Notes: generated from the letters alone by a model not told the origin. DNA of 64,000 nucleotides from Candidatus Saccharimonadales bacterium (GCA_035510465.1 DATKHC010000004.1:6481-70480); one strand, 5' to 3'; shown: positions 5,321 through 55,233, counted from the stretch's first letter. Program-made: numbers and translations.

Positions 5321-5640
5321 AAACTCTTGTCCCTCACTATACTTAAAGTTTGATTGATTTTTGGATATTTGCTTTAGTATGCTTTATGTTACACCTATAG
5401 CATTACCATTTCAACTACATTATTTAACTGTAGTTTGAGAACGCTGTGGCATAGTAGTTAAGAGTACGATATAACGCTGTCATATCTACAGAACAAGCAA
5501 GCTTTTCGGCTTCTTGGGAGTAAAATCAAAGTCTTTAAACATATTAAGCACACTAGCAGTACTAGAATATCTGTCCAGTATCTCATTTATTAAGTCTTCT
5601 CGTGGAGTTTGAGCTGACTCTGCGTTGTGCAGCCAGTAAG

Positions 5641-5685
5641 TTATTGTATCTCTTAATTTGGTAGGTATGGCTATAGGGTTCGAAC
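5641..5685 (+). repeat. type-c linker module, copy 1 (TTATTGT.TCTCT..GGTATGGCTATAGGGTTCGAAC)
   Basis: Aligns by eye with 12721-12765 and 13721-13767. Contains an inverted T-loop-like GGRTTCGAAC. Preceded by ..CAGCCAGTAAGTTATTGT, similar to the CAGCCATAAAGTTATTGT that spans the 12715/12716 junction. Confidence 0.6.
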
Positions 5686-5709
5686 GCTTTAGTCGTGTTT
5701 CGGTAGTGC

Positions 5710-6276
5710 TTGCAATTTTCAGTGCCTGAACTCATATTTAACGTAATGTTACTTAGAACCGAGACGGGGTTAAAAGAGTTAACCGATTTTCCTGATGAAC
5801 CAATCCTGACAGTTTTAGATCATGAAGACTTTGAAGTGTTATTGGGAGCTCTAGATTCTCCCGTCAACGCCTGGCAAGCAACAGCGTATGAGTGTGAAGA
5901 TTCCCGCATAGACTACGAGCACAGGTTAGCAACCTCATATTATGGAGTTTTATATCACAAGCCGAGCAAGCCAGACGAAGATGAGCTGGGGGAGGTGAGA
6001 GAACGGCCACATATGGGGATATTGATTCAAGACTTGCCATTTGTGATGAGCGGGTGCGCCCGCGCTATTGGTTTAAAGGCAAACAGAGGTAATAAAAGAA
6101 TCATTGAAACCGCAATGACAATGTTGCCCGTCGTAAGAGAAGCAATTGACGACCTACATTACTTAGAAGTGGAAAATTCTGACTTGAAATACAAGCCCTA
6201 TACGGCAGAGGAGATAGGTGGATGGCGAGACATAGACACAGAGTTAGCGAAACTTAAAACAAGAGCTAGTGTTTAA
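5710..6276 (+). CDS. hypothetical protein (first visible cassette; start possibly at ATG 5746)
   Basis: ORF track with a TTG start; followed 9 nt later by a repeat copy. Confidence 0.45.
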   Translation: MQFSVPELIFNVMLLRTETGLKELTDFPDEPILTVLDHEDFEVLLGALDSPVNAWQATAYECEDSRIDYEHRLATSYYGVLYHKPSKPDEDELGEVRERPHMGILIQDLPFVMSGCARAIGLKANRGNKRIIETAMTMLPVVREAIDDLHYLEVENSDLKYKPYTAEEIGGWRDIDTELAKLKTRASV

Positions 6277-6285
6277 CTTTTTACG

Positions 6286-6314
6286 GTACGGAACTCAACC
6301 TCGAGTCCCAGCCA
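6286..6314 (+). repeat. 29-nt cassette repeat
   Basis: GTACGGAACTCAACCTCGAGTCCCAGCCA, followed by AGCATAAGCGGTTTGA. Confidence 0.9.
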
Positions 6315-6333
6315 AGCATAAGCGGTTTGATAT

Positions 6334-7551
6334 TTAAAATTTCAGAGTCGCAAAGTAATCGTCTGGGGTTTCAGTTCGTCTTATTAACTCAACTGTATTG
6401 TCTGGTCGCAACAGCAATTCAGCTGATCTCAACATCCCGTTATAGTTAAAACCCATAGTGTGTCCATGTGCACCAGCGTCGTGAATTATTACGACGTCTC
6501 CAACCTCTATTTCCGGTAGTTTACGATCTATGGCAAACTTATCGTTGTTTTCGCATAATGAGCCTGTTAAATCGTAAGAATTAGTACCAGAGCCGCCTTT
6601 ACCCAAGATCGTTATCTGATGATAGGCTCCGTACATACCTGGTCTCATCAAATTGTGCATCGAGGCATCTAACCCTATAAAAGTCTTATAGGTATGTTTT
6701 ATATGACGGACTTTGGTCACCAAATAGCCATGCGGCCCAGTTATATACCTACCGCATTCCATAAATACGGCCGGTTCGTAGGGTAAATAAGTTCTAAGTA
6801 GTTCTTCAACTTCTTGAGAAAAACCATCAATATCAAACTCTTTTTCTTCTAGTTTATAGGGAATGCCTATGCCACCACCAAGATTAATAAATTCAAGTTC
6901 AATATTGTTGGTTTCATAGATTTCTTTAGCAAGATCAAATAAGGCTTTAACTATTTCTAGAGCTACACTCTTATCTAGATTATTACTAATAACCATAGCA
7001 TGTAGTCCAAATCGTTTAACGCCTTTTTGCTGGGCTTGCTTAATGCCATCAATAATTTGTTGTTTTGTCATACCAAACTTGGCTTCTTCGGGTTGGCCAA
7101 TAATTTCATTGCCGTGAACTTGATCGCCAGGATTATAGCGAAAACATAACAAATCCGGTAACCCAGCTTCTTTTTCTAGGAAATCAATGTGAGAGATATC
7201 ATCCAGGTTAATAATGGCATCTAGCTCATGTGCCTTCTTAAAATCTGCAGCTGGAGTATCATTTGAGCTAAACATAACGTCACTGCCTTTAGCTCCAATT
7301 CTTTCTGCGAGTAGAAGCTCAGTATAAGAGCTACAGTCTAGACCCATACCCTCAGAAAGTAGTATTTCTAGGATTTTTGGGTTTGGGAGCGCTTTGACGG
7401 CAAAATAGTTTCGGAAGCCCTTATTCCATTTAAAAGCCTCTTTAATCTTTTGAGCGGCACTTCTGATACTACTTTCATCATAGACATAGAAGGGCGTAGG
7501 ATATTCTTCGGTGGCTTTTTTAATGATATTTTCATCAATTACCCTTCTCAT
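6334..7551 (-). CDS. fold-type III PLP-dependent decarboxylase (diaminopimelate/ornithine decarboxylase family)
   Basis: FAVKALPN (PLP-Lys region), LGGGIGIPY glycine loop, CENNDKF motif. Inverted relative to the flanking repeats. Confidence 0.75.
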   Translation of the reverse strand: MRRVIDENIIKKATEEYPTPFYVYDESSIRSAAQKIKEAFKWNKGFRNYFAVKALPNPKILEILLSEGMGLDCSSYTELLLAERIGAKGSDVMFSSNDTPAADFKKAHELDAIINLDDISHIDFLEKEAGLPDLLCFRYNPGDQVHGNEIIGQPEEAKFGMTKQQIIDGIKQAQQKGVKRFGLHAMVISNNLDKSVALEIVKALFDLAKEIYETNNIELEFINLGGGIGIPYKLEEKEFDIDGFSQEVEELLRTYLPYEPAVFMECGRYITGPHGYLVTKVRHIKHTYKTFIGLDASMHNLMRPGMYGAYHQITILGKGGSGTNSYDLTGSLCENNDKFAIDRKLPEIEVGDVVIIHDAGAHGHTMGFNYNGMLRSAELLLRPDNTVELIRRTETPDDYFATLKF

Positions 7552-7580
7552 TTGTCTATTCTACCAGTTTGAGCTAAATC

Positions 7581-7609
7581 GTATGGAATTCAACCTCGAG
7601 TCCCAGCCA
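7581..7609 (+). repeat. 29-nt cassette repeat
   Basis: GTATGGAATTCAACCTCGAGTCCCAGCCA, followed by AACGTAAGAAGTTT. Confidence 0.85.
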
Positions 7610-7625
7610 AACGTAAGAAGTTTAC

Positions 7626-7649
7626 GCGACTATACCCTTAAAGCAAGTA
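7626..7649 (-). repeat. module B repeat (reverse orientation)
   Basis: GCGACTATACCCTTAAAGCAAGTA is the reverse complement of TACTTGCTTTAAGGGTATAGTCGC. Followed by TCTAGTTCGAGTCTAG at 7658-7673. Confidence 0.6.
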
Positions 7650-7685
7650 GATCATTTTTCTAGTTCGAGTCTAGTGAACTCTTAT

Positions 7686-7714
7686 TTGACATAATCACAA
7701 CCTTTAAATAAACT
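7686..7714 (+). promoter_or_regulatory. sigma70-like promoter TTGACA-17-TAAACT
   Basis: TTGACA at 7686, 17-nt spacer, TAAACT at 7709. The same architecture is conserved upstream of the paralogue at 13783. Confidence 0.55.
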
Positions 7715-7759
7715 GGAGGTATTCTTTAAACAATCAAAAACAAAAAGGATTATAAAAAT

Positions 7760-9028
7760 ATGAAACTTCTCAAACTAAATCAAGAAGGTATAGCTCACTG
7801 GTTGGTACCTGCTTTAGTCATGGCTATAGTGGGGGTAGTAGGCGTAAGAGTACTGACAGCTACCCATGCTGCTGCGCCGTCTAGTGTGACAACTTCTAAT
7901 GCGTCTAAGCCTACCCCGCTTATTTATACCTCTTCTACCAGTTCAGGAACCACTTACTCAGTATATGCGTACGACTCAAGTGCAAAATCGAACCTCATCG
8001 AAGGACCATCGGCCAATACTGCTTATCAGTATCCGTCATATTCACCGAACGGTAAGCAAGCCGTATGGGTTCAGACTAATACCAGCGGTAGCAATACTGG
8101 CTATATGCAATTCTATAACGCCAATAATCAAACATTAACAGGCAACTACGTTCTTCCTGGTGGAGAAACAATAAGCGGGGGTGGACTATACGAAGTTAAG
8201 CCAGCATGGTTCCCTGGCAGTAGTAAGATAGCATTTGCACTAGAGAGTTCATCTGGAATATATTCAATCCAGACACTAACAACTTCTGGAAATTGGCATG
8301 ATGTCGCTAATCTATCAAGTTCATACGGAAACATAGATAGTGTAGCTGTAACGAACGACGGCAATTATGTGGTGTTTGGAACTAGCACAGGTGTCTATGC
8401 GGTTAAAGTATCAGATCCTAGTAAAATAACTACACTATGGAACGAGAGCGACGCCTTGCTGAAAGGACCAGTTGACCCTTCAGATACAAATTGTTACGCA
8501 ACGGAAGCACAACCAGGCACAACTGATGGAGTTGGTTGGATATGTAACTACTCTGGAAGTAACGTTAATGATTCGGGGTGGGAGGTAGATTCCGGTCTTA
8601 TTAAAGCTAGCTCTTACACCACAATATACTCAGATCAGTATTCAGGCACAGGGACAGCAACCTTTTATAATATTCAAGACCTAGCATGGTCGCCTAACGG
8701 AAATGAACTAGCGCTAGATACGATTAAGGAACACGTTGTTGGAAATAGTGAGTCTTGCGGCAAAGACACAGTACAAACCTCTATTCTCGGGTTAACAGAT
8801 TCGAAAGGAGCTAGCCCTACTAAAATAGCCAGTGGTCAAGTTAACCCTTCTCCTTGTAAAGGAGGAGGTAATGAAACATACGATAACAACGACCTCGCCT
8901 GGAGCCCTGATGGGAGTAGTCTAGCTTACATAGACAATGATTACATTTATGCAATACCTCCAAGTAATAGTAGCGGCTCATCAGCACCTGTACTTGTCTC
9001 TAGCAACTCTGCCGAACTAGATTGGTAA
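7760..9028 (+). CDS. membrane-anchored/secreted TolB-like beta-propeller protein
   Basis: N-terminal anchor MKLLKLNQEGIAHWLVPALVMAIVGVVGVRVLTATHAA. PD40-like repeats (YSPNGKQ, AWSPNGNELA, AWSPDGSSLAY). Confidence 0.65.
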   Translation: MKLLKLNQEGIAHWLVPALVMAIVGVVGVRVLTATHAAAPSSVTTSNASKPTPLIYTSSTSSGTTYSVYAYDSSAKSNLIEGPSANTAYQYPSYSPNGKQAVWVQTNTSGSNTGYMQFYNANNQTLTGNYVLPGGETISGGGLYEVKPAWFPGSSKIAFALESSSGIYSIQTLTTSGNWHDVANLSSSYGNIDSVAVTNDGNYVVFGTSTGVYAVKVSDPSKITTLWNESDALLKGPVDPSDTNCYATEAQPGTTDGVGWICNYSGSNVNDSGWEVDSGLIKASSYTTIYSDQYSGTGTATFYNIQDLAWSPNGNELALDTIKEHVVGNSESCGKDTVQTSILGLTDSKGASPTKIASGQVNPSPCKGGGNETYDNNDLAWSPDGSSLAYIDNDYIYAIPPSNSSGSSAPVLVSSNSAELDW

Positions 9029-9069
9029 GCTCGGGATGCCTGTAACTTTGGGGATTAAGAGGTTTATAG

Positions 9070-9160
9070 GTACGGAACGCGGACTTGATAATCAAACAAT
9101 GTCTATCTAGAAAATAATTGAATACTATCCTACTTGCACTCGAGGGATAAGCCCCACTTC
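9070..9160 (+). repeat. split/degenerate cassette repeat
   Basis: GTACGGAAC at 9070 then unrelated sequence; degenerate tail CACTTCAAATTCTAGCCA ends ~9160. Confidence 0.4.
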
Positions 9161-9178
9161 AAATTCTAGCCAAAATAG

Positions 9179-9204
9179 TTACTTGCTGTCATGGGATAGT
9201 CGCC
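9179..9204 (+). repeat. module B repeat
   Basis: TTACTTGCTGTCATGGGATAGTCGCC; compare 56406-56431. Confidence 0.6.
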
Positions 9205-9215
9205 GAAGTTTATAG

Positions 9216-9244
9216 TTGACGATACATAGCTTCTGTATTATAAT
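9216..9244 (+). promoter_or_regulatory. sigma70-like promoter TTGACG-17-TATAAT
   Basis: TTGACG at 9216, 17-nt spacer, TATAAT at 9239; upstream of proB. Confidence 0.5.
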
Positions 9245-9418
9245 AATCTTTATGTTAAAAACTTACCAAATCGCTATTTCAGTCCTTTCTCCTCCAGCAC
9301 CTACACAGCAGCTGGGGTAAGTTATATATTTCATTAAGTAATCACTAGTCAGTCTAACGCCCCAGCCAAGGGGCGTTTTAAATGCCTTTACCCAGATCTG
9401 ACTTTTTTGGATACTTAA

Positions 9419-10210
9419 ATGGAAAATTTAGATAAAAAAGACCTGCTGGTAGTTAAGGTAGGCACAAACTTACTTGTAGATAAAACTCAAGATCAGGAAA
9501 AATTAAACGACAACTCGTTCATACACATCGGCTCACAGGCACTTGAGCTTACGGAGAGTGGATACGGAGTCGTCATTGTATCATCCGGCGCAGTAACAGC
9601 TGGTGTAATTAGTGATGGCAAAAAACGTGACGGAACTGAAGAAATGGTTGAATTACAGAGATATGCAGCTCGAGGGTGGGACTCTGTTGTTAAAGCGTGG
9701 AAGCGGGCTATTGGATCTAATAGAGTAAGTTCAACCCTACTTACCAAAAGAGAGTTACGTGATCAGAAGACCCGTAAATCAGCGCTTGGGGTTATTGCAT
9801 GCTGCCTTGGCCACCAAGATATCTTTATCGTGAACGAGAATGACACTATTAGTGATGACGAGCTGAAGTATGGCAATAATGACACCTTGGCGGGTGAGCT
9901 AGCTTCCACTCTTGCAGTTGCTGGCATATTTAAATCGGCTAGATTAGTGTTATTAACTGATAAAAGTGGTCTTAACAGAGATAAGAACGACGATTCAACA
10001 CTAATTAGAGTAGTTAGTGATATAGAATCAGTACGGCTATATGCAGATGATTCTGGTGATATAAACTCTAAAGGAGGGATGTTAACTAAATTAAATGCGG
10101 CAGAACATGCTAAATTCTTCGGGATTGAGACGTTTATTGCTGGAGGTGCGGAGGATAGTTCGATTACTCGGGCAGTTAGCGGAGAGATCGGTACACGCTT
10201 TAAAATCTAA
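9419..10210 (+). CDS. proB: glutamate 5-kinase (amino-acid kinase fold, no PUA domain)
   Basis: VVKVGTNLL, VSSGAV and GNNDTLA motifs. Confidence 0.75.
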   Translation: MENLDKKDLLVVKVGTNLLVDKTQDQEKLNDNSFIHIGSQALELTESGYGVVIVSSGAVTAGVISDGKKRDGTEEMVELQRYAARGWDSVVKAWKRAIGSNRVSSTLLTKRELRDQKTRKSALGVIACCLGHQDIFIVNENDTISDDELKYGNNDTLAGELASTLAVAGIFKSARLVLLTDKSGLNRDKNDDSTLIRVVSDIESVRLYADDSGDINSKGGMLTKLNAAEHAKFFGIETFIAGGAEDSSITRAVSGEIGTRFKI

Positions 10211-10222
10211 GTAGACCTTGAC

Positions 10223-10251
10223 GTGCGGGGTTCAACCTCTATTCCCGGCCA
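10223..10251 (+). repeat. 29-nt cassette repeat (divergent copy)
   Basis: GTGCGGGGTTCAACCTCTATTCCCGGCCA, followed by AACATAAGCG. Confidence 0.75.
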
Positions 10252-10362
10252 AACATAAGCGTAATAATATGGCCGAGTGAGTACCCCGACAAAAAGCCAC
10301 GATAACCCCGACATTTTGGCTTAATACTTGCCATATACATACATGGAGCATACAATTAGTGT

Positions 10363-10620
10363 ATGAGTAATTATAAAACAATAAATATATCTTTGCCCGA
10401 AGATCTTCTTAAGAAAGTTGATGAAGAAGCAAGATCCGAATTTGCTAATCGAAGTGACTTCATAAGGGATACCTTAGTGCGTAGGTTAAAACACCAAAAA
10501 GTTATTGATGAATGGGGAGATGAAGGAGAATGGGAAACCATTGTCAATTTCAAGAGTATAGATTCATCTGGAATTAAGATTGAAGATGCCATAAAAGCGC
10601 TCGGTCAACTAACAAAGTAA
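10363..10620 (+). CDS. ribbon-helix-helix (CopG-type) antitoxin
   Basis: INISLPEDLLKKVDEEARSEFANRSDFIRDTLVRRL is a typical RHH. It ends 5 nt before the toxin gene. Confidence 0.7.
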   Translation: MSNYKTINISLPEDLLKKVDEEARSEFANRSDFIRDTLVRRLKHQKVIDEWGDEGEWETIVNFKSIDSSGIKIEDAIKALGQLTK

Positions 10621-10625
10621 GAGTT

Positions 10626-10871
10626 ATGGCCGACAAGATTGCCAAATTACTATCAAAAATCCCTATAAAAGATTTACTTAGAATTCAAGAGGCATTAAAG
10701 AAAATCAAATCGCTGCAACTTGAAGGACTGAATATTAAGGCTATTAAAGGTCAGAAAGATATATTTAGAGTCAGAATTGGAAGTTACAGGATAGTCTTCA
10801 AGATAAATGACAAAAATATTCGACTTCTAAAAATTGATAAAAGAAACGAAAAGACCTACAGAGGTTTCTGA
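10626..10871 (+). CDS. RelE/ParE-family toxin
   Basis: 81 aa; FRVRIGSYRIVFKINDKNIRLLKIDKRNEKTY matches the RelE/ParE C-terminal pattern. Confidence 0.7.
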   Translation: MADKIAKLLSKIPIKDLLRIQEALKKIKSLQLEGLNIKAIKGQKDIFRVRIGSYRIVFKINDKNIRLLKIDKRNEKTYRGF

Positions 10872-10878
10872 TTAGGTT

Positions 10879-10907
10879 GTACTGAACTCGACCTCGATTC
10901 CCAGCCA
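10879..10907 (+). repeat. 29-nt cassette repeat
   Basis: GTACTGAACTCGACCTCGATTCCCAGCCA; 7 nt after the toxin stop. Confidence 0.85.
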
Positions 10908-10911
10908 GGAC

Positions 10912-10940
10912 TTGACATTAGTTGGTATATATATTATTAT
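10912..10940 (+). promoter_or_regulatory. sigma70-like promoter TTGACA-17-TATTAT
   Basis: Begins 5 nt after the repeat. This makes the track start at 10912 unlikely. Confidence 0.45.
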
Positions 10941-10947
10941 ATTCTTT

Positions 10948-11223
10948 ATGTTTAAGTCTAAATCAAGTAATGAAGGTTCTGCCAGAACTAATTGTTTTGA
11001 TACGTTTGATTCAACAACTAATGGCACCCAAATACCGAAAAGACAAGAACCCTCAAGTGTATACGCTCCAGGCGATGACCCATTTGATCCTTTTGCCATG
11101 GCCGAAGTAGATCCAAGTACTTTTCCAGCAGCTCAATTAGACGAGGCACTCGCGAATGACGCACTATGGAGAGCGTACGAAAGCCAGCCATTAGTCGTTA
11201 TAGATTACGACAAACTAAGATAG
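10948..11223 (+). CDS. hypothetical small protein
   Basis: In-frame ATG at 10948 within track ORF 10912..11223; no motif recognised. Confidence 0.35.
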   Translation: MFKSKSSNEGSARTNCFDTFDSTTNGTQIPKRQEPSSVYAPGDDPFDPFAMAEVDPSTFPAAQLDEALANDALWRAYESQPLVVIDYDKLR

Positions 11224-11285
11224 TTTAGTTTTTCTTCTGATCTGTAGCAAAGTTCAAAATAGTTCGAAATTGTTATAATAGCTTA

Positions 11286-11942
11286 ATGAATGAATCTGTT
11301 GATGATTTAGCTAGAACACTCCTAGACTATATGAAAATGAATACGCCCGTAGAAAAGTCTGACGTCCTTATTGGCATGGGCGCATTGGACATAAGGATAG
11401 CTGAGCGAACTGCTCAATTATTCTTAGATGGATATGGCAAATATATTATTTTTACTGGTGGACTGGGCAAAATCACTAAACACACTCATACACAAACCGA
11501 AGCAGAACGATTTAGGGATACGGCAATAAAGATGGATGTACCGGAAGATAAGATTTTACTTGAGAAAGAAGCAACTAACTCAGGAGAAAATATTGTATTA
11601 GTCCAGGAGTTGCTTGAAAGTAAGGATCTTCACCCTAAGTCACTGCTTGTCGTTACAAAATCGTACATGGAACGAAGAATTTATGCTGCTTACAAAAAAC
11701 AGTGGAAAGATAAAGCTGCCAGAATTATAGTTACCTCACCACAAATTACATACGAAGAGCATTTCAATGAAGACATCCCAAAAGATCTATTTATAAATGT
11801 CATGGTCGGTGACCTGCAGAGAATTAAAGTATATCCTAAGCAGGGCTTTCAAATAGAGCAGAATATTCCGGAGAACGTCTGGGAAGCTTACAAGAAGTTG
11901 GTTAGATTAGGGTATACGGATTTTGTTATTAAGAATACTTAG
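11286..11942 (+). CDS. YdcF/DUF218-family protein
   Basis: VLIGMGALD..IIFTGGLG..TEAERFRDTAIKMDVPEDKILLEKEATNSGENI matches the DUF218 pattern. Confidence 0.65.
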   Translation: MNESVDDLARTLLDYMKMNTPVEKSDVLIGMGALDIRIAERTAQLFLDGYGKYIIFTGGLGKITKHTHTQTEAERFRDTAIKMDVPEDKILLEKEATNSGENIVLVQELLESKDLHPKSLLVVTKSYMERRIYAAYKKQWKDKAARIIVTSPQITYEEHFNEDIPKDLFINVMVGDLQRIKVYPKQGFQIEQNIPENVWEAYKKLVRLGYTDFVIKNT

Positions 11943-11980
11943 TCAATCAAGGTTCGAAAATCGTCCCTTATTGACAGCCA
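11942..11980 (+). repeat. hairpin variant of the cassette repeat ending AGCCA
   Basis: GTCAATCAAGG-TTCGAAAATCGTC-CCTTATTGAC + AGCCA: a 10-bp imperfect stem with a T-loop-like TTCGAAA. It occupies the position of the 29-mer. Confidence 0.6.
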
Positions 11981-12026
11981 ATATTTCACCTCTGTGAGTT
12001 TTTATGCTCACCTCAGTTCGAATCCC
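11981..12026 (+). repeat. type-b linker module
   Basis: ATATTTCACCTCTGTGAG..CTCACCTCAGTTCGAATCCC; compare 15203, and 56446 and 57758 in reverse. Confidence 0.6.
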
Positions 12027-12081
12027 TTATGGGTTCCTCCGCAAAAAGTCGTTTGAAATTTGTGGCTGTTATTATGTAGTC

Positions 12082-12675
12082 ATGAGCGAATCAAAGTTAA
12101 ACATTAGTGAACTCCTTAATAGCAAACGACCCAAAGCTGGTAAAACGAAATTTATAGCAATAGATGGTCATGGAGGAGCTGGTAAATCAACTTTGGCTAA
12201 TATGCTTTCTAAACAATTTAACGCACAATTGGTCCCCATTGATGACTTTGCAAGCTGGGATAACTCTGATTGGTGGCCACAAGTTATAAAGAACATATTT
12301 GAGCCGATATCGGGTGGAGCAACTTCACTTAACTATCCTCGTTCTTCTTGGTGGGAGGATCATCACCCAGAGCCTGTTGTCAATCAACCGGTTACAGACG
12401 TAATGATTCTAGAGGGGGTAAGTTCCTCAAGAACCGAATTTCGTAAATATCTAAGTCTGATTATCTTCGTAAACACGCCTAAAGATCTGTGTATGAAAAG
12501 AGGCATCGAAAGAGACTTGAGCACCGGAAAATCTGTAGAAGAGCTGACGGAAATGTGGACAAAGTGGTATCAAGAAGAAGATGGATACATAGCTAGAGAT
12601 CACCCTCGGGATTTTGCTGATGTAGTGATCGACGGGACTCGACCTTACAATGAGCAAATAGTTACAGCCACTTAA
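12082..12675 (+). CDS. P-loop nucleoside/nucleotide kinase-like protein
   Basis: Walker A in IAIDGHGGAGKSTLANML. Start moved to MSESKLN because the track N-terminus overlaps the type-b module. Confidence 0.55.
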   Translation: MSESKLNISELLNSKRPKAGKTKFIAIDGHGGAGKSTLANMLSKQFNAQLVPIDDFASWDNSDWWPQVIKNIFEPISGGATSLNYPRSSWWEDHHPEPVVNQPVTDVMILEGVSSSRTEFRKYLSLIIFVNTPKDLCMKRGIERDLSTGKSVEELTEMWTKWYQEEDGYIARDHPRDFADVVIDGTRPYNEQIVTAT

Positions 12676-12686
12676 GCTTTTAGATT

Positions 12687-12715
12687 GTACGGAACTCAAC
12701 CTCAACCCCCAGCCA
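12687..12715 (+). repeat. 29-nt cassette repeat
   Basis: GTACGGAACTCAACCTCAACCCCCAGCCA. Confidence 0.85.
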
Positions 12716-12720
12716 TAAAG

Positions 12721-12765
12721 TTATTGTCTCTGTTATTTTACTGAGTATGAATATAGGATTCGAAC
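12721..12765 (+). repeat. type-c linker module, copy 2
   Basis: TTATTGTCTCTGTTATTTTACTGAGTATGAATATAGGATTCGAAC. Confidence 0.6.
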
Positions 12766-12771
12766 TTTGTT

Positions 12772-13686
12772 ATGATGAGTCCAGTTATGGACGACCATTT
12801 TGAAAAAAATGCCTTGAGTTGGGGAGAGGGTGGAGCAGCTTGGCTTAAGAGCATTCCAAAAGTTATCAAAAAATATGAAAGTAGGTGGTCGATTAAAGTC
12901 TTGCCGCCTTACACGCTTAGCTTTAATTACGTAGCGCCTGTCCAAAGGGCTGATGGATCGATGGCAGTACTTAAAATGATCTATCCGGGTGACCTGGAGT
13001 TTAAATCTGAAATTAAAGCGCTAGAATACTTTAAAGGTAATGGCATTGTTAAGCTGCTAGAAGTAGATGAAAAAGACGCGATAATTCTACTGGAACATAT
13101 TGCCCCGGGTAAACCGCTGTCTTCTTTAGATAACGACGATCAAGCAACCAAAATAATTGCCAAGGTTATAAAGAAATTACAGGAGAAATCATCAACTGCT
13201 AACAATTTTGTCAGTATCAATGACTGGGTTTCAGAAATACCAAAATATAAACAAGGATTTCTAGGTGAACAAGCTCCATTACCAACATTATTAGTAAATA
13301 AAGCTGAGATATTATTTAAACAGCTTATTGCAACTTCTGCTAAGCCTATACTTGTCCATGGTGATCTGCATCACGATAATATACTTCAATCAAATAAATC
13401 TGGATGGCTAGCAATCGACCCCAAAGGCGTTTCGGCTGAACCGGCTTACGAAGTGGCAGCTATGATTCGTAACCCCTACGAGAAGCTCAAAGATATACCA
13501 GATCTTGCACCTTTACTGCGAAGACGGATTACTATTTTATCCGAAGAACTAGAAATTGACCCCCAGCGTATTTTGGATTGGTGCTTTGCGCAGACAATGC
13601 TCTCAGCGGTATGGAGTGTTGGAGGAGTCAAAGGCCCCGAACACGCTCTAAGAGTCGCGGAAACTTTAGACACACTTGCACTTTAA
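12772..13686 (+). CDS. aminoglycoside phosphotransferase, APH(6)/streptomycin-kinase-like
   Basis: HGDLHHDNIL catalytic loop, LAIDPKG, and overall APH(6)-like layout. Confidence 0.7.
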   Translation: MMSPVMDDHFEKNALSWGEGGAAWLKSIPKVIKKYESRWSIKVLPPYTLSFNYVAPVQRADGSMAVLKMIYPGDLEFKSEIKALEYFKGNGIVKLLEVDEKDAIILLEHIAPGKPLSSLDNDDQATKIIAKVIKKLQEKSSTANNFVSINDWVSEIPKYKQGFLGEQAPLPTLLVNKAEILFKQLIATSAKPILVHGDLHHDNILQSNKSGWLAIDPKGVSAEPAYEVAAMIRNPYEKLKDIPDLAPLLRRRITILSEELEIDPQRILDWCFAQTMLSAVWSVGGVKGPEHALRVAETLDTLAL

Positions 13687-13689
13687 GCG

Positions 13690-13718
13690 GTACGGAACTC
13701 AACCTCAATTCCCAGCCA
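13690..13718 (+). repeat. 29-nt cassette repeat
   Basis: GTACGGAACTCAACCTCAATTCCCAGCCA; 3 nt after the stop. Confidence 0.9.
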
Positions 13719-13720
13719 TG

Positions 13721-13767
13721 TAGTTTTTCTCTCTGTTAATTTTGCGGTATGGTTATAGGATTCGAAC
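13721..13767 (+). repeat. type-c linker module, copy 3
   Basis: TAGTTTTTCTCTCTGTTAATTTTGCGGTATGGTTATAGGATTCGAAC. Confidence 0.6.
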
Positions 13768-13782
13768 TTTCTAATCCGTTAC

Positions 13783-13811
13783 TTGACATAACCATTAGCT
13801 TTACCTAAACT
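13783..13811 (+). promoter_or_regulatory. sigma70-like promoter TTGACA-17-TAAACT
   Basis: Same hexamers and spacing as 7686-7714. Confidence 0.55.
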
Positions 13812-13867
13812 GAAAGTATTCTTTAGAAATTAAAACAATGAAATAACAAACAAAAAGGAATTAAAGT

Positions 13868-15088
13868 ATGAAGCTTATTAAATTAAACCAAGCTGGTATA
13901 GCTCACTGGCTAGTGCCAGCCCTAGTAGTGGCTATAATTGGCGTGGTGGGCGTAAGAGTACTAACAGCTACTCATGCGGCTACGCCAGCAATAGCTAATA
14001 ATTCTTCTTCGACAGGTCCTTTGCTATTTACCACAATAAATAATAATCAGAACCCCGTCACAACTAGTGTAATAACTGTAAACCAAAACGGCTCAGGGAA
14101 ATCAACCATAACTCCACAAAATCAAGCGTATCCTTGGGGTTTCGTATGGAGTCCTGATCATACGCAAATTGCATACACAGATTTGGTATATTCCACTCCA
14201 AATGACGTCTCTACAGCAAGGGGGACGATTAACATAATGAATGATAATGGTACAGACTCACAAGTCATTAAAACAATGCCAGCAGGCTCAGGGCTATCTA
14301 ATTTAGTTTGGTCGCCCGACGGCAAAAGTCTTCTATTCGCGGATGGGTCGTCTACAAATAAGAAAGACAAGAGTAAAGTTTATACAATAGGAGTAAATGG
14401 CAAAAACTTAAATTCGATCGCTAATCTGGAGCCCAATACGGGTGCCCAAGACATGCAATGGTCTCCAAACAGCAAGGAAGTTCTACTTACTGGAGAGCCG
14501 AAGACAAACCCGCAAGAAGAGTTGACGTATGTGTATACCGCTTCGGGTAAATTAGTTGCTACCCTACCGACACCGAATAATAGCTCTTTCTGGGGTAACG
14601 ATGCCTGGACACCTGATAACTCATCTTTGATATTTCATAACAATACCAATAACGAGATTTCAGAGATGAATGTCGCCACTCAAGCAGTAACTGCTATAGC
14701 TCCGGCCTCTTGCAGTAGCAATGATGTATCTTCGGTCAACGTGTCACCGAATGGCGATTTAATATCCTATGACTGTGTAACACCAGTACCCGATACCACT
14801 CCTACCCAGTTTACTAACAGCATAGTAGTCTCTACCATTACAGGCTCTAACCCTGTCGTTGTCGCGTCAGGAATACTAAGTGAAGGTGTTAATAACGCAC
14901 TGCCAACAGAGCGAGGCTGGGCTTATAACAGTACGGCTCTGGATTATTACGTTAGTAGTACCCCAACATCTTCTAACGGTAATCTATACACCGTTAATGC
15001 TGATGGTTCAGATACAAAAGCAGCCCTTAAAAATGTCTCAAATACTGAGATATTCACTTGGAATAGTTCGCCCAGTAATATTTTTTAA
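13868..15088 (+). CDS. membrane-anchored/secreted TolB-like beta-propeller protein (paralogue of 7760..9028)
   Basis: First ~38 aa nearly identical to 7760..9028. PD40-like VWSPDHTQIAY, VWSPDGKSLLF, QWSPNSKEV. Confidence 0.65.
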   Translation: MKLIKLNQAGIAHWLVPALVVAIIGVVGVRVLTATHAATPAIANNSSSTGPLLFTTINNNQNPVTTSVITVNQNGSGKSTITPQNQAYPWGFVWSPDHTQIAYTDLVYSTPNDVSTARGTINIMNDNGTDSQVIKTMPAGSGLSNLVWSPDGKSLLFADGSSTNKKDKSKVYTIGVNGKNLNSIANLEPNTGAQDMQWSPNSKEVLLTGEPKTNPQEELTYVYTASGKLVATLPTPNNSSFWGNDAWTPDNSSLIFHNNTNNEISEMNVATQAVTAIAPASCSSNDVSSVNVSPNGDLISYDCVTPVPDTTPTQFTNSIVVSTITGSNPVVVASGILSEGVNNALPTERGWAYNSTALDYYVSSTPTSSNGNLYTVNADGSDTKAALKNVSNTEIFTWNSSPSNIF

Positions 15089-15173
15089 TTCTGTATAACC
15101 TGGCTAATCATTAAGTCACCGAATCTGTTAATTCTGATTCTATGGGTATAGGAGTGACTTATTTATCTGTACT

Positions 15174-15202
15174 GTACGGAACTCAACCTCAATTCCCAGC
15201 CA
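15174..15202 (+). repeat. 29-nt cassette repeat
   Basis: GTACGGAACTCAACCTCAATTCCCAGCCA. Confidence 0.9.
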
Positions 15203-15247
15203 ATATTTCACCCCTGAGTACATTTGCTTCCACCTCTGTTCGAATCC
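15203..15247 (+). repeat. type-b linker module
   Basis: ATATTTCACCCCTGAG..CCACCTCTGTTCGAATCC. Confidence 0.6.
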
Positions 15248-15298
15248 TTTATGCATACAGTAATAGATTTATAGAGCCAAATATTATATAATATTCGT

Positions 15299-15877
15299 AT
15301 GGCAAAGCAATTAGAAGTTGCGAATTGGGACGACTTAAAAGCTGTATCCGAGTTATCTGGTTTAATGTGGTCTCAAGCTGAACCTGGCTTCCAAATAGAA
15401 GGGGTCAGTGACATCGAGCAGTTAGTGTTCGTGCTAGATAGTTTAAAAACTGCCGTTCCCAAACAAGTGACAGGTGTGGTGAATTTTGATTCTGCTTATC
15501 CATGGAATGGGTTTGAACAATTTAAGCCAGAACCGCAAGATGCACATATCGATACTGATTTCACTGGTATAGCAGTACATCAAAATATCTCTACTACAGT
15601 CCCCGTAAAACTTGGTATAGCTAGGTACCCATGGAATGGTGGCACAATAAATGAAGATACGGCCACTGGAATTAGAGAAGGCGAAACAATTCCGGGTAGA
15701 TTGACGGTATTTTCAGAAGGATGGCCTGAGATGATGAGAAAGACGGCTCATTTTTTCGATCGAACAGCTGGTACACCTATTTTTTTGTCAAGATATACGC
15801 AATCTACTGATACGCCGGCGAATAATATACCTAAAATCGCTGCTGAAAGCTTTGAATTATTGAAAAGGTATCGCTAA
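15299..15877 (+). CDS. hypothetical protein
   Basis: ORF track; single gene between two repeat copies. Confidence 0.45.
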   Translation: MAKQLEVANWDDLKAVSELSGLMWSQAEPGFQIEGVSDIEQLVFVLDSLKTAVPKQVTGVVNFDSAYPWNGFEQFKPEPQDAHIDTDFTGIAVHQNISTTVPVKLGIARYPWNGGTINEDTATGIREGETIPGRLTVFSEGWPEMMRKTAHFFDRTAGTPIFLSRYTQSTDTPANNIPKIAAESFELLKRYR

Positions 15878-15881
15878 ACAC

Positions 15882-15910
15882 GTACGGAACTCAATCTCGA
15901 TTCCCAGCCA
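15882..15910 (+). repeat. 29-nt cassette repeat
   Basis: GTACGGAACTCAATCTCGATTCCCAGCCA, followed by AAGCGTAAGCGTTTT. Confidence 0.9.
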
Positions 15911-15973
15911 AAGCGTAAGCGTTTTAGGTTCGTTAATTTCGTTCGGCTATCAGATAAATTAAAATTGGAGAGG

Positions 15974-16528
15974 TTAATTAGAGCCTAAATATTTAAAAGA
16001 AGCAGCAATTGTCTTTATATCGTTTGGGTTTGGTTTAGTCGCTTGAATAGCGGCTTCATTACTAGTGTTAACTTGTTGACCAGGGCTGTAAGGAGCGATA
16101 TTTATCGCATACACCGTGGTGCTATTACCAAAAAATGAATTAAACTCCACAGGACTAACTGAATATTGACTAGGATTAGTGCAAAAGTTGGCATTTACGC
16201 CTATAGATTTAATAAACACTGAAAATGCCTGAACATTTTCAGTGTTTGAAGAAGATGAACAATTGTTGGAATTTTCTACAAGTTGTTGTGCTGACTGAGT
16301 GCTATTGTTAGGTCTTCCTGATAGCGACATCACAAGTGAGACACCCCCTTTACTAATAGGCGGAGAGACTAATACGTTATCAGTAACAGTACCGAAGTTG
16401 TAACTTTGAGTAGAAGAACCCTTATAGAAAAGTATGCTATATTTATCGCCTTTATCGTTGGTTAAGGTGTACTGTCTGAGCTTTGAGTTAATCAATGTCG
16501 CCCGTAAATTATAGTTAGTAGAGACCAA
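15974..16528 (-). CDS. hypothetical Ser/Asn-rich protein (TTG start; possibly the C-terminal part of a frameshifted gene)
   Basis: ORF track. Its frame stays open upstream to ~16570 and overlaps ORF 16492..16764. Confidence 0.4.
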   Translation of the reverse strand: MVSTNYNLRATLINSKLRQYTLTNDKGDKYSILFYKGSSTQSYNFGTVTDNVLVSPPISKGGVSLVMSLSGRPNNSTQSAQQLVENSNNCSSSSNTENVQAFSVFIKSIGVNANFCTNPSQYSVSPVEFNSFFGNSTTVYAINIAPYSPGQQVNTSNEAAIQATKPNPNDIKTIAASFKYLGSN

Positions 16529-16764
16529 TGCCCCAAACGTAGCCAGTGGCGCTTTGGCTTGTTAATTTGGGCCTGTGACAGAGAGGCGTAGCTGGTGCTA
16601 GTAGGATGGGAGTCAACGCTCGTGTTCGGTGACAAATTACTAGCTGTAACTTTAAGAGGTGTATCTGTTGTGGGCTGCTCTGGTACGGAGGGAGGAACGT
16701 TCGATTGTTCTGGCGAAGTAGGGTTTTGATTTTGCTCATTGTCCATCAAGATCAAATATAACAC
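16492..16764 (-). pseudogene. possible N-terminal fragment of the same gene (low-complexity Pro/Ser/Thr-rich leader ending in KPKR)
   Basis: Overlaps 15974..16528 in another frame; a 1-nt shift near 16540-16570 would join them. Confidence 0.3.
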
Positions 16765-16810
16765 TTGTGCTTATCTGAGCATAGTGAACAGGATGGATTG
16801 ACACTACGCT

Positions 16811-16839
16811 GTACGGAACTCAACCTCGATCCCCAGCCA
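16811..16839 (+). repeat. 29-nt cassette repeat
   Basis: GTACGGAACTCAACCTCGATCCCCAGCCA, followed by AGCATAAGCATTTTGA. Confidence 0.9.
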
Positions 16840-16926
16840 AGCATAAGCATTTTGACCTCTTATTTCTATTATCTGATAGAGCTTATTGGCTGACCCTTGT
16901 GTTTTTCTCTGTTAATATAGAACTAA

Positions 16927-18312
16927 ATGGATGAATTGAACCCACAAAAGCTGAAAGCAGCAGTTAAGTACATAAATTCCTGGCTTGAGGTTAACTTTGA
17001 AAACTCAAGGCTACCAGCAATGCAGGTTGCTATTCAACATGGCAGTAAGATCATTTACTCAGAAGCATTTGGATATTCGGACGTAAAAGCTAAAGAAAAG
17101 CTAAATACTAGAAATGTTTTTAGGATCGCTTCTCATTCAAAGACCTTTACCGCCACCGCGATAATGCTGCTAGTAGAAGCCGGTAAGTTAAATCTCGATG
17201 ACAAGGTCAACAAATACGTTAGCTGGTTTAAGTCATCTAAAGATAAAAGAGTACAGGAAGTAACAATTCGGCAACTTCTAAATCATACTGCTGGAATAGT
17301 TAGAGATGGCTATGATTCAAACTTCTGGCAATTGCTGCATGAATTTCCCGATAAGAATGAGCTTAAAGCTTTTATATCTGACAGTAAATTGGTATATGAC
17401 CCTGATGAAAAGTTTAAGTATTCTAACTTTGGGTTTGGTTATCTTGGGCAAGTAATTGAGGCCGTAAGTGAAGTTTCATACCGAGAATATGTGACAAAAA
17501 ACATCGTTGATAAATTGGGTCTTAAATCGACTGGCCCTGACCTAGACTCTAAAGCCAAGAAACTCTTAGCAACTGGTTACGGGATCGAAATATTTAACAA
17601 AGAACGTCGAGTATTTGATCATATCGACACGCATGCTTTGTCTTCTGCGACAGGCTTTTATAGTAATGCAGAGGATTGCTGCCGATATTTCGCTTCTCAC
17701 TTCATTGGCAATAACTCTCTGATTAGCGATAAGTCTAAACGTTTAATGCAGCATGGTTATTGGAAGTCAGAGGGTACAAAAGAACGCTACGGACTGGGAA
17801 TGGTAAATTATAAATTAAACAGCTGGAATATTTTTGGACATAGCGGTGGATTTCCTGGTTTTACGACAAATACAAAGTTTGATGCTAAAAAGCAGCTTGT
17901 TGTATCAGTTTTAATTAATGCTTACGGCACATACACCAGCAATATATGCTCAAAATTGATTAGTATTATTGATACCTTCCAGCAAGATACTGCAAACATC
18001 AAAACCGACGTTACTAATCTGAAGAAGTTTGAAGGAAGGTTTTTCTGTACATGGGGACCAACGGACGTAATTCTTGCGGGAAAGAAGCTACTCGCTATTG
18101 ATCCATTAAACTGGGCTGATTTTGAAGACTGCGAAGAATTGACCGTTTTAGATGAAGATACCCTAAAAATTGCAAAATCCAGTGGCTACGGTCATTCTGG
18201 TGAATTAATTAAGTATAAATTTGATTCTAAGGGTAAAATCACCTCCTTTACTTATGCGGGAAGAACAATGCTTCCTTTTAATGAAGCTCAAAAACAAGGG
18301 TGGTTTTCATAA
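16927..18312 (+). CDS. beta-lactamase-family serine hydrolase (class C / PBP4*-like)
   Basis: SxxK (ASHSK), YxN (KYSNFG) and HSGG box. Confidence 0.7.
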   Translation: MDELNPQKLKAAVKYINSWLEVNFENSRLPAMQVAIQHGSKIIYSEAFGYSDVKAKEKLNTRNVFRIASHSKTFTATAIMLLVEAGKLNLDDKVNKYVSWFKSSKDKRVQEVTIRQLLNHTAGIVRDGYDSNFWQLLHEFPDKNELKAFISDSKLVYDPDEKFKYSNFGFGYLGQVIEAVSEVSYREYVTKNIVDKLGLKSTGPDLDSKAKKLLATGYGIEIFNKERRVFDHIDTHALSSATGFYSNAEDCCRYFASHFIGNNSLISDKSKRLMQHGYWKSEGTKERYGLGMVNYKLNSWNIFGHSGGFPGFTTNTKFDAKKQLVVSVLINAYGTYTSNICSKLISIIDTFQQDTANIKTDVTNLKKFEGRFFCTWGPTDVILAGKKLLAIDPLNWADFEDCEELTVLDEDTLKIAKSSGYGHSGELIKYKFDSKGKITSFTYAGRTMLPFNEAQKQGWFS

Positions 18313-18344
18313 ACCTACAGATAAAATTATTACATCATTAAATC

Positions 18345-18373
18345 GTACGGAACTCAACCTCAATTCCCAGCCA
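18345..18373 (+). repeat. 29-nt cassette repeat (last + copy)
   Basis: GTACGGAACTCAACCTCAATTCCCAGCCA. ATAAGCACTATGGGCAAT at ~18399 resembles the variant repeat family of the middle array. Confidence 0.9.
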
Positions 18374-55232: not shown

Positions 55233-55233
55233 C

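Follow-up and report, generated by a model that had tools for sequence, protein, structure and literature searches.

A 64-kb stretch of DNA from a Candidatus Saccharimonadales bacterium (the window) carries two arrays of small gene cassettes, about 22 in all (12 left and 10 right, 0.3 to 1.5 kb each), punctuated by a polar 29-nt repeat whose final bases are those of the tRNA-Gln 3' end. Its closest parallels are cassette and tandem-integration systems already known. On balance we favor the interpretation that the arrays consist of cassettes without an integrase of their own, which site-specific recombination inserts and exchanges at a core derived from tRNA-Gln, CAGCCA, with a large serine recombinase (LSR), acting in trans, as the likeliest enzyme.

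Two cassette arrays and their repeat

The arrays, together with a transposase pair next to one of them, are laid out as follows:

5636-18373, + strand: left array, 12 cassettes, each with a leader, gene(s) and a 29-nt site
18711-19797, + strand: IS3-type transposase pair (HTH_Tnp_1 and rve, by Pfam), directly past the left array
54113-61016, - strand: right array, 10 cassettes in mirror orientation

Searching the window for the 29-mer at up to three mismatches returned 18 matches against 0.00 expected from 100 shuffles: nine clean copies on the + strand and nine on the - strand between 54113 and 60653, where a 28-nt copy and an inverted copy also occur. No copy was found in the 36 kb between the arrays (18374-54112) or elsewhere in the window outside them, and in a 780-kb chromosome the repeat is confined to one stretch. 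The even dispersal that would have refuted an earlier, sequence-only reading of the repeat as an integron-like, polar cassette recombination site without IntI or attC is therefore not seen, and that reading is supported. Polarity is constant within each array irrespective of gene orientation. The sites, with full-length left copies located by motif search, are:

6286-6314, + strand: 29-mer copy
7581-7609, + strand: 29-mer copy
9070-9098, + strand: decayed copy, only the 5' box GTACGGAAC left
10223-10251, + strand: degenerate 29-mer, six mismatches, GTGCGGGGTTCAACCTCTATTCCCGGCCA
10879-10907, + strand: 29-mer copy
11942-11980, + strand: family-2 site, a hairpin plus CAGCCA (DNA fold z = -4.6), related to repeats in contig L019
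12687-12715, + strand: 29-mer copy
13690-13718, + strand: 29-mer copy
15174-15202, + strand: 29-mer copy
15882-15910, + strand: 29-mer copy
16811-16839, + strand: 29-mer copy
18345-18373, + strand: 29-mer copy, the final one of the left array
60625, 59953, 59529 (28 nt), 59194, 58619, 57804, 56817, 56491, 55204 and 54113, - strand: right-array sites
56371-56399, + strand: lone inverted 29-mer within the right array, head to head with the 56491 copy

The sequence-only reading had listed ten clean + strand copies, nine of which are borne out, the tenth (10223) being present only in degenerate form; its estimate of about 13 left cassettes becomes 12 on recount. The hairpin variant it noted at 11942 is real and belongs to a second repeat family seen in another genome. 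Among the pieces it called degenerate, that at 9070-9160 does retain a 5' box, the one at 9356 is a GC hairpin whose loop carries AGCCA, and the one near 5630 is no decayed 29-mer but the far junction of the LSR element, sharing only the CAGCCA core. The spacing, the single gene per interval, the toxin-antitoxin pair and the two reversed cassettes that it described all hold.

In order, the left cassettes encode an unknown protein of 188 aa, an Orn/DAP decarboxylase (reversed), a PD40 propeller and an amino-acid kinase (cassettes 1-4); RHH+ParE, a 103-aa protein plus DUF218, a PRK-like kinase and APH(6) (5-8); and a second PD40 propeller, an unknown protein of 192 aa, an unknown protein (reversed) and a beta-lactamase-fold protein (9-12). 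Right-array cargo includes an HAD phosphatase and Fic, the rest mostly lacking a Pfam family. Leaders fall into four recurring types, several with good promoter matches, and each of the five best-scoring sigma-70-like matches found on the left array's + strand falls within a leader, ahead of a cassette ORF.

In the 29-mer, GTWYGGA and CCCAGCCA form two boxes. The site is conserved at 27-29 of 29 positions in at least six further contigs, which come from different metagenomes and one MAG. Their cargo mostly has no detectable match in the window, the sole exception being a weak one between the RHH gene of L006 and that of the window (45% over 29 aa). In L017 the central part of the site has drifted, with the two boxes holding a fixed 29-nt register. 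Over 760 bp, up to ..CCCAGCCAA, contigs L001 and L017 share 99.5% identity; past that point they are unrelated, the divergence beginning immediately after CAGCCA(A), at the 3' edge of a repeat copy. We thus observe a strain breakpoint at the core, where the sequence-only reading had expected one. Nothing realigns downstream within 7-10 kb, so a larger rearrangement is possible rather than a single-cassette swap.

The tRNA-Gln anchor and the serine-recombinase element

CAGCCA, the array core, is the 3' terminus of tRNA-Gln (acceptor end, discriminator G and CCA), and the earlier description of the repeat as ending like a tRNA 3' end is for this reason literally true. The identity extends over the 3'-most 8-9 bases of the 29-mer, (T)CCCAGCCA; the 20 nt upstream of the core have no significant tRNA likeness. 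Arrays begin at a tRNA-Gln, at a tRNA-like remnant or at the end of an LSR element. The first case is seen in L008, where a genuine tRNA-Gln(TTG) (Rfam, 65 bits) ending ..GTCCCAGCCA is followed directly by a type-B leader, one gene and a 29-mer; the leader is 85-88% identical to the type-B leaders of the window, and the 1 kb of L008 contains no LSR. The second case heads the right array:

61017-61096, - strand: tRNA-like remnant ending GGTTCGAATCCTAGCAACCCAGCCA, called by ARAGORN at a lowered threshold

This remnant shares 18 nt (CCCAGCCAAGCATAAGCG) with the repeat and type-A leader. Only the lowered threshold calls it, a setting that also yields false positives, and Rfam tRNA gave no match to it at E<=10.

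The third case is the left array, whose head is the far end of a 5.7-kb LSR element:

1-1573, - strand: LSR gene, codons 1-524 of 561
1605-2183, - strand: HTH protein adjoining the LSR
2431-4566, + strand: apparent cargo of the element, a dihydroorotase-like amidohydrolase and a dihydroorotate dehydrogenase (Pfam; between the element's conserved ends)
4946-5320, - strand: 124-aa protein near the far end, 62% identical in L013
5489-5635, - strand: 49-codon 'tail' ORF (WLHNAESAQTPRED...LVL*), without a start codon
5630-5635, + strand: CAGCCA core, far junction of the element and head of the left array

The last 37 codons of the LSR, and a tRNA-Gln remnant that they overlap, lie immediately left of the window. 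The full protein (Logan contig L010) contains Resolvase (PF00239), Recombinase (PF07508) and Zn_ribbon_recom (PF13408) domains and the motifs YLRKSS..Q and DRLARN, and with three domains and the catalytic serine motif it meets the criteria of the large serine recombinase family. Its sequence agrees with P0001 ('recombinase family protein, Candidatus Saccharimonadales bacterium') at 100% identity. In L013 and L018 the place beside the LSR is likewise taken by an HTH protein, there of the HTH_23 family.

At five independent LSR loci (the window strain, L013, L014, L018 and L019) the junction falls within the same CAGCCA, with ..CCAGCCA meeting AGCAGGATTT at the LSR end and the element finishing in ..TTGTGCAGCCA at the other. 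Four of the five elements adjoin a tRNA-Gln or its remnant: in L014 this is a real tRNA-Gln(CTG), and in L018 a remnant with the same 3' end as that gene, about 100 nt downstream of a real tRNA-Gln(TTG). The fifth, in L019, adjoins a family-2 cassette repeat, within an array of that family, and this repeat ends in the same core. Together, the integrase, the tRNA 3' end and the core direct repeat meet the criteria of a tRNA-targeting integrative element. No array is present at the L014 and L018 loci, and none is visible in L013, whose array side is lost to IS110 and the contig end. The tRNA-Gln anchor, the neighboring LSR element using the same core and the second repeat family go beyond what the sequence-only reading had noted.

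The tail ORF begins with TGGCTG, exactly the reverse complement of the core, and is conserved at the protein level in L013, L014, L018 and L019. Homology to P0128-P0133 always runs from WL through to the C-terminus, and the LSR itself ends in ..NPAWL plus a variable tail. The ORF probably encodes the C-terminus that the LSR has when the element is an excised circle. The att site lies inside the LSR coding sequence, at codons W-L.

A recombination model and competing explanations

In the model we favor, small cassettes without an integrase would be added one by one at the short CAGCCA core, each comprising a 5' leader, one or two genes on either strand and, at the 3' end, a site of 29 bp. We infer that the site is bound by protein: as unfolded double-stranded DNA it would form one recombinase half-site, with crossover inside CAGCCA. 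In published structures, an LSR uses two domains to contact an attP half-site over about 25 bp (PMC3783163). An excised cassette, by inference a circle, would join its 29-mer to its own leader and could integrate again at the end of tRNA-Gln or at any 29-mer copy already present, so that arrays would grow, shrink and vary between strains. No circular junction or empty site was observed, and mobility is therefore inferred from comparison only.

The LSR of the element at the left-array head is predicted to move the cassettes in trans. It is the likeliest candidate, on inference, and remains unproven. LSR sites normally consist of two quasi-symmetric half-sites; that only one side of each junction is conserved counts against this model. 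Canonical serine integrases are not known to recombine two sites of the same kind, as turnover of the arrays would require, and this too counts against it, as do the LSR loci without an array, the L008 array at a tRNA-Gln whose 1 kb has no LSR, and the lack of resemblance between the 29-mer upstream of the core and the element's P arm. We can only tentatively entertain the bolder proposal that Saccharimonadales run a serine-recombinase counterpart of the integron, in which the tRNA-Gln 3' end serves as attI, the LSR in trans captures, stacks and exchanges single-gene cassettes with one-sided 29-bp sites, and the LSR gene spans its own attP. On this view integration would swap the LSR C-terminus, a possible built-in switch between an integrating and a resident form.

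A less likely possibility, though one that has to be kept in play, is that the same cassette mechanism relies on another enzyme, either a tyrosine recombinase (Xer-like, or an integrase from a phage or ICE) or a different serine recombinase, encoded elsewhere or on a visiting element, with the LSR element just another tenant of a tRNA-Gln hotspot. Tyrosine integrases classically target tRNA 3' ends, some LSR loci have no arrays, LSR paralogs number in the hundreds in candidate-phyla-radiation (CPR) bacteria, and outside CAGCCA the 29-mer differs from the P arm of the LSR element, which it does not resemble upstream of the core (score 4 versus 2.5 for shuffles). This account must contend with a Pfam scan of about 65 ORFs, limited to the 64-kb window, in which the sole site-specific recombinase was the serine recombinase and no IntI, Phage_integrase or other tyrosine recombinase was found, with the LSR-family junction in exactly the same hexamer at five loci, and with an LSR element that heads one array and another that sits inside one.

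We think it improbable that the arrays are a graveyard in which the repeats are att scars of successive larger, integrase-bearing elements (tycheposon- or prophage-like) at tRNA-Gln whose integrases were later deleted, the units not being individually mobile. Tandem integration at tRNA genes leaving partial tRNA copies is well documented, and tRNA-like remnants and decayed copies are present here, but Pfam detected no recombinase or integrase fragment in any of the 22 units. Moreover, the 20 non-tRNA nucleotides upstream of the core are conserved within and between genomes, implying selection on the site itself, and recurring leader types are common to different genomes.

Very little supports reading the repeat as a REP/MITE-like intergenic element, or as a signal for transcription termination or RNA processing, that plays no part in DNA rearrangement. 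The repeat is short and intergenic, and a T-run often follows it (type-A leader, ..GCGTTTT), but it does not meet the definition of palindromic or TIR-bounded, dispersed elements, forming two clusters in 64 kb, with none in the 36 kb between, and one stretch in the 780-kb chromosome. It has no DNA fold beyond shuffles, alone (z = 0.3) or in the 29-mer and 44-mer comparison (z = 0.3-0.5), no terminator signature and no Rfam family, its polarity ignores gene direction, and a strain breakpoint lies at its edge; the earlier preference for a polar site over a terminator stands.

Relation to known systems and implications

A classical integron or CALIN, whose attC sites recombine as folded single strands, with IntI located outside the window, can hardly be maintained: one gene per unit, toxin-antitoxin cassettes, resistance-type enzymes (APH(6) and the beta-lactamase-fold protein) and an ACTCAAC in the 29-mer that matches RYYYAAC by eye all fit it, but 17 of 18 copies have no inverted partner within 150 nt (best reverse-complement match at shuffle level), the site has no fold, some sites lie merely 20 nt from the next ORF, the window scan found no IntI, half of the right-array genes are reversed and the anchor is a tRNA gene rather than attI. 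Lacking such a partner, the 29-mer is not an attC (imperfect palindromes of 55-140 nt, R''-L''...L'-R'), and with no IntI or tyrosine recombinase in the window the arrays are not an integron or CALIN, in line with the sequence-only reading, which saw neither an IntI-type integrase nor an attC palindrome. An attI and Pc with co-oriented cassettes are likewise not met, given the array starting points and reversals in 2 of 12 left and 5 of 10 right cassettes. The likeness to integrons, including sedentary chromosomal ones and CALINs, lies in extended series of single-gene cassettes, promoter-poor or self-promoted, each ended by a polar recombination site and stacked at a fixed anchor, with toxin-antitoxin and resistance-type cargo typical. 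Integrons use IntI, an attC hairpin and an attI anchor, whereas here the 29-bp site lacks structure and has just one conserved side, the tRNA-Gln 3' end takes the place of the anchor and gene orientation is unconstrained.

In SCC/SCCmec, which use CcrAB or CcrC LSRs, short direct core repeats bound tandem units, and recombinase-less units beside recombinase-bearing ones could be moved in trans. The present system is alike in its LSR, its core repeats and its recombinase-less units beside an LSR unit. SCC units of 3-60 kb target the rlmH (orfX) 3' end, whereas the 22 units here are single-gene, about 1 kb, and at tRNA-Gln, so the criterion for an SCC-type island is not met; the LSR gene here is moreover split by attP, and its likeness to Ccr rests on the shared Pfam architecture.

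Small cargo modules with recombinase sites of about 28 bp and an enzyme encoded elsewhere also occur as the Xer-dependent pdif modules of Acinetobacter plasmids, which the cassettes resemble in these respects. pdif sites are XerC-6 nt-XerD dyads in alternating orientation; here copies are direct within an array, one-sided, without a dyad and, by eye, unlike dif, and the pdif/Xer definition is not satisfied. In mycobacteriophage integration-dependent immunity, attP lies inside a phage gene and integration changes the C-terminus of its protein. The split LSR is similar in having an att site inside a coding sequence, but here it is the gene of the integrase itself, a serine recombinase, that is split, and no degradation tag or regulatory consequence has been shown. 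Tycheposons integrate at tRNA 3' ends, successive insertions pushing older ones outward with partial tRNA copies between (bioRxiv 10.1101/2020.12.28.424599). This description fits the LSR element; tycheposons carry their own integrase and replication genes and tRNA flanks of about 40 nt, whereas the cassettes have no recombinase and share 8-9 nt with tRNA-Gln, next to a 20-nt non-tRNA site, and do not qualify as tRNA-targeting elements or tycheposons.

Integrons depend on one tyrosine-recombinase lineage and folded attC DNA, and no other well-characterized system is known to accumulate individual promoterless genes at a single site. Should another platform with an unrelated mechanism do this as well, cassette capture has more than one evolutionary origin. 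Such a platform, if confirmed, would combine double-stranded sites of 29 bp with a tRNA anchor and, probably, a serine recombinase, and a whole class of gene-capture loci would escape the tools that search for integrons. Serine integrases are valued as genome-engineering tools, and one accepting many cassette substrates at a short core would have practical interest. For the ultra-small, host-dependent genomes of CPR bacteria (Saccharimonadales, < 1 Mb), such a platform would explain how a flexible gene pool is maintained, to which the kinases, aminoglycoside phosphotransferase, beta-lactamase-fold protein, toxin-antitoxins, Fic and surface propellers of the cargo are relevant.

Copies, leaders and cargo of the 29-nt site

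A pattern search of the window with GTACGGAACTCAACCTCGATTCCCAGCCA, allowing up to three mismatches, returned 18 copies of the polar 29-nt site (29-mer) that closes each cassette, and none in shuffled sequence. Nine copies on the + strand, from 6286 to 18373, bear out those listed by the sequence-only reading; a tenth that it had called clean, at 10223, is present but has six mismatches. Nine further clean copies lie on the - strand from 54113 to 60653, and a profile search added a 28-nt copy at 59529 and an inverted copy at 56371. The window search found no copies in the 36 kb separating the two arrays or in either flank. The 5' boundary of the repeat is sharp, with unrelated upstream sequences between copies, and the sequences on its 3' side fall into a few recurring leader types. 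Site polarity is constant within each array, the copy at 56371 being the sole exception.

Leader types found 3' of the 29-mer
Type A: AGCATAAGCnTTTT
Type B: ATATTTCACCTCTG...CAGTTCGAATCC
Type C: TAAAGTTATTGTCTCTGTTA...ATAGGATTCGAAC
Type D: AAATAGTTACTTGCTG...GGGATAGTCGCC

Each interval holds one gene, or two in some cases, and cassettes are reversed in 2 of 12 instances in the left array and 5 of 10 in the right.

Cassette cargo assigned with Pfam
Left array, 5636-18373 (+): Orn/DAP decarboxylase; two PD40 propeller proteins; amino-acid kinase; RHH + ParE toxin-antitoxin pair; DUF218; PRK-like kinase; APH(6); beta-lactamase-fold protein; several without a Pfam family
Right array, 54113-61016 (-): HAD phosphatase; Fic; the majority without a family

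The PD40/beta-propeller proteins encoded at 7760-9028 and 13868-15088 have in common a 58-residue N-terminal signal/anchor (69% identity), and their genes also share the 20 nt 5' of it; the remainder of the proteins has almost wholly diverged. On the + strand of the left array, the five strongest sigma-70-like matches all fall in leaders 5' of a cassette ORF, and the total of such matches on that strand is not above shuffle level. No repeat coincides with a terminator-like site, and the next ORF is only 20-60 nt away from several copies.

For 17 of 18 copies, no sequence within 150 nt matches the 29-mer in inverted orientation above shuffle level; the sole match is the head-to-head pair 56371/56491. 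This rules out a classical attC, whose palindrome the sequence-only reading had also failed to see. Neither the 29-mer nor a 44-mer including the type-A leader folded better than shuffles (z = 0.3-0.5). Rfam at the gathering threshold over the window returned only three ordinary tRNAs, and at E<=1 over both arrays it returned no match; with folding and Rfam both blank, a structured RNA or DNA at the site was rejected. Pfam scans of about 65 window ORFs detected no tyrosine recombinase, in line with the sequence-only reading, which saw no IntI-type integrase. An integron, the integron-type CALIN class, a REP/MITE family and a terminator are therefore excluded on fold, complementarity, ORF spacing, Rfam and the Pfam scans of window ORFs.

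The head-to-head pair at 56371-56519 encloses about 91 nt made up of a type-B leader and a reverse-complemented type-D leader; it contains the only inverted copy in both arrays, and we offer no explanation for it. The arrays face each other, and the 36 kb between them hold genes of ordinary kinds (tRNAs, GluRS, sortase, ABC transporter). Were a left copy to recombine with a right one, these 36 kb would be inverted, and an event of this kind may already have produced the layout seen now. Also between the arrays, an 852-aa HerA/TraG-like ATPase (DUF87, TraG-D_C; 48750-51308, -) lies near a run of about 10 ORFs without a Pfam family and may belong to a machinery for type IV secretion or DNA transfer.

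The tRNA-Gln end and a second site family

The core of these polar, one-sided sites, CAGCCA, is identical to the 3' end of tRNA-Gln. In L008, a metagenome contig, a genuine tRNA-Gln(TTG) (Rfam, 65 bits) ends in ...CCGTCCCAGCCA and is followed directly by a type-B leader 85-88% identical to the window leaders, then by one gene of 159 aa, a 29-mer and a type-A leader. This arrangement shows that the final 8-9 bases of the repeat are the tRNA-Gln acceptor end with discriminator G and CCA, and that an array can start directly at a tRNA-Gln gene. Three kinds of array start are observed: a tRNA-Gln, a tRNA-like remnant, and the end of an element carrying a large serine recombinase (LSR). The remnant heads the right array.

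61017-61096: tRNA-like remnant, ...GGTTCGAATCCTAGCAACCCAGCCA/AGCATAAGCG

It has 18 nt in common with the repeat plus type-A leader. ARAGORN called it a tRNA-Tyr only at a lowered threshold that also gave obvious false positives, and Rfam rejects it; we keep it only as a tRNA-like remnant, with no credible tRNA. The 29-mer was also tried as a decayed tRNA-Gln T-arm. Upstream of the core, 9-196 of 500 shuffles aligned equally well, depending on the tRNA-Gln or remnant used, which is at or near shuffle level, and the idea was dropped except for the core. A tRNA origin for that upstream part is thus not demonstrable from the alignments. The motif GGCGAC(T/C)AYCCCYYCASAGCAAGTAAC occurs in both orientations in type-D leaders and two tRNA-like remnants (window 9141-9204, 55520-55590, 56400-56440 and 61040-61096; 4114-4190 of the same-strain contig L012); genuine tRNA-Gln genes are dissimilar to it.

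A second family of cassette sites has the same CAGCCA core and is represented once in the window and several times in another genome (L019). The window copy is the element that the sequence-only reading had listed as a hairpin variant.

Second cassette-site family, ..AAATCGTCCCYTATKGMCAGCCA, partly hairpin-forming
11942-11980: window copy
11654, 2942 and 2000 (-): copies in L019

In L019 the LSR element itself sits within an array of this family (...GCTCGTAAATCGTCCCCYAYGGCCAGCCA), one cassette of which is an RHH + PIN pair. The two families differ in their left arms and keep the same core. GC-rich hairpins with the core (AGCCA or CAGCCA) in the loop occur at window 9341-9380 and at about 2920-2960 of L019. 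The L019 hairpin, CGTCCCTTA-TGCCCAGCCA-TAAGGGACG, is a perfect dyad about the core, like a two-armed recombinase site; the window hairpin, with a T-run on its 3' side, may simply be a terminator.

A serine recombinase element joined at the core

The 5.7-kb LSR element heads the left array.

Just left of base 1 to 5635: LSR, HTH protein, dihydroorotase-like gene, pyrD, two small ORFs, tail; the left array follows without a gap

Bases 1-1573 (-) encode 524 of the 561 LSR residues; Resolvase, Recombinase and Zn-ribbon domains are present, and the catalytic motifs are intact. This window-edge protein matches, at 100% identity, the NCBI entry 'MAG TPA: recombinase family protein [Candidatus Saccharimonadales bacterium]'. 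In same-strain contigs the 3' end of the gene overlaps, in antisense, a tRNA-Gln remnant, ...GGTTCGAATCCAGTAATCCCAGCCA/AGCAGGATTTAACACG. We compared four loci whose LSRs are 64-70% identical to that of the window; all lack the 29-mer, and L013 and L014 lack the other array repeats as well.

Sequence to the left of the LSR junction
L014: real tRNA-Gln(CTG)
L018: remnant whose start lies about 100 nt past the end of a real tRNA-Gln(TTG)
L013: remnant
L019: cassette-type repeat

The LSR invariably ends ...NPAWL, where the W-L codons, TGGCTG, are the reverse complement of the core. Beyond W-L its tail differs with the sequence to the left of the junction, and in many homologs the tail, GMRDSNPRSWDQNPVPYRLANPQ, is antisense-read tRNA-Gln. 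At the far end of the element, all five loci carry a 49-codon frame, WLHNAESAQTPREDLINEILDRYSS...LVL and stop, that has no start codon, begins exactly with TGGCTG and is conserved at the protein level.

Tail ORF
Window: 5489-5635 (-)
L013: 1351-1500
L014: 3941-4100
L018: 8000-8146
L019: 5655-5800

Among 1.8 billion representative proteins, every occurrence of the tail peptide forms the C-terminal 49 residues of a short ORF with an unrelated N-terminus, and homology begins at WL every time. This is most simply read as an attP within the LSR gene and a split of that gene at W-L on integration. In that case the circle released by excision would code for an LSR of about 601 aa, whose C-terminus would give way to antisense-read tRNA-Gln when the element integrates. 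No unsplit LSR was found, the search of the representative library with the tail giving orphan tails only.

Pyrimidine-synthesis genes lie beside arrays in two genomes: in the window, the LSR element contains the dihydroorotase-like gene and pyrD (2431-4566), and in MAG OY969420.1 an aspartate carbamoyltransferase gene lies close to the end of the array (L001 1681-2628). Either the synteny is conserved or a mobile element carries core metabolism. Insertion sequences seem to gather at array ends, with an IS3-family transposase pair (18711-19797) 340 nt past the last left-array copy and an IS110 transposase abutting the far end of the element in L013.

Distribution, evidence for recombination at the core and known systems

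Across 185,579 species-representative genomes, the site matched in one stretch of one genome, the 780-kb chromosome OY969420.1. Copies matching at 27-29 of 29 bases, some at cassette-like spacing, occur on five short JGI metagenome contigs, and the genes of these contigs have no detectable window homolog apart from a weak match of the RHH gene with which L006 starts to the window RHH gene (45% over 29 aa). Matches in L005 and in L007, which is high-GC, were rejected as chance hits of the degenerate pattern. The site matched nothing in viral contigs, PLSDB plasmids or INPHARED phages. Exact-sequence look-ups of two cassette proteins gave no match, and homologs of the cassette gene 15299-15877 in L015 and L016 have no flanking repeat.

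Same-strain Logan contigs (L009-L012) are colinear with the window, with no polymorphism seen. The strain alignment proposed by the sequence-only reading did yield a breakpoint elsewhere: identity between the MAG locus L001 and the independent ENA contig L017 is 99.5% over 760 bp through ...CCCAGCCAA, and the two have no common sequence within the 7-10 kb beyond, diverging at the 3' edge of the repeat, at the core. The junction of the LSR family likewise falls in the core, at 5 of 5 loci. In L017, the middle of the site has drifted across five direct copies that keep GTWYGGA and CCCAGCCA at a constant 29-nt register, as would be expected if the site bound a protein through two boxes. For comparison, the contacts that a serine integrase makes with its recombinase and zinc-ribbon domains span all 25 bp of an attP half-site (PMC3783163).

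We infer that the 29-mer acts as a recombinase half-site, that cassettes would leave as circles with their own leader joined to their own 29-mer, and that these circles could re-enter at the tRNA end or at any existing copy, with the LSR acting in trans. One weak point is that only one half is conserved at each junction; another is that textbook serine integrases are not known to recombine like sites with like. A serious rival is that the enzyme is a recombinase encoded elsewhere: the 29-mer is unlike the LSR element's own arm, and arrays and LSR are not always together in the available fragments.

Literature searches found no paper on integron-like arrays, LSRs or tRNA islands in Saccharibacteria, and none describing arrays of this kind in Saccharibacteria or Patescibacteria. 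SCC-type islands combine an LSR, direct repeats with a short core and recombinase-less units parked by recombinase-bearing ones. The arrays resemble integrons in function. In chemistry and targeting, SCC-type islands and tandem tRNA-site elements such as tycheposons are nearer to them, and the arrays fit the defining features of none of these: integron, SCC-type island or tycheposon-like element.
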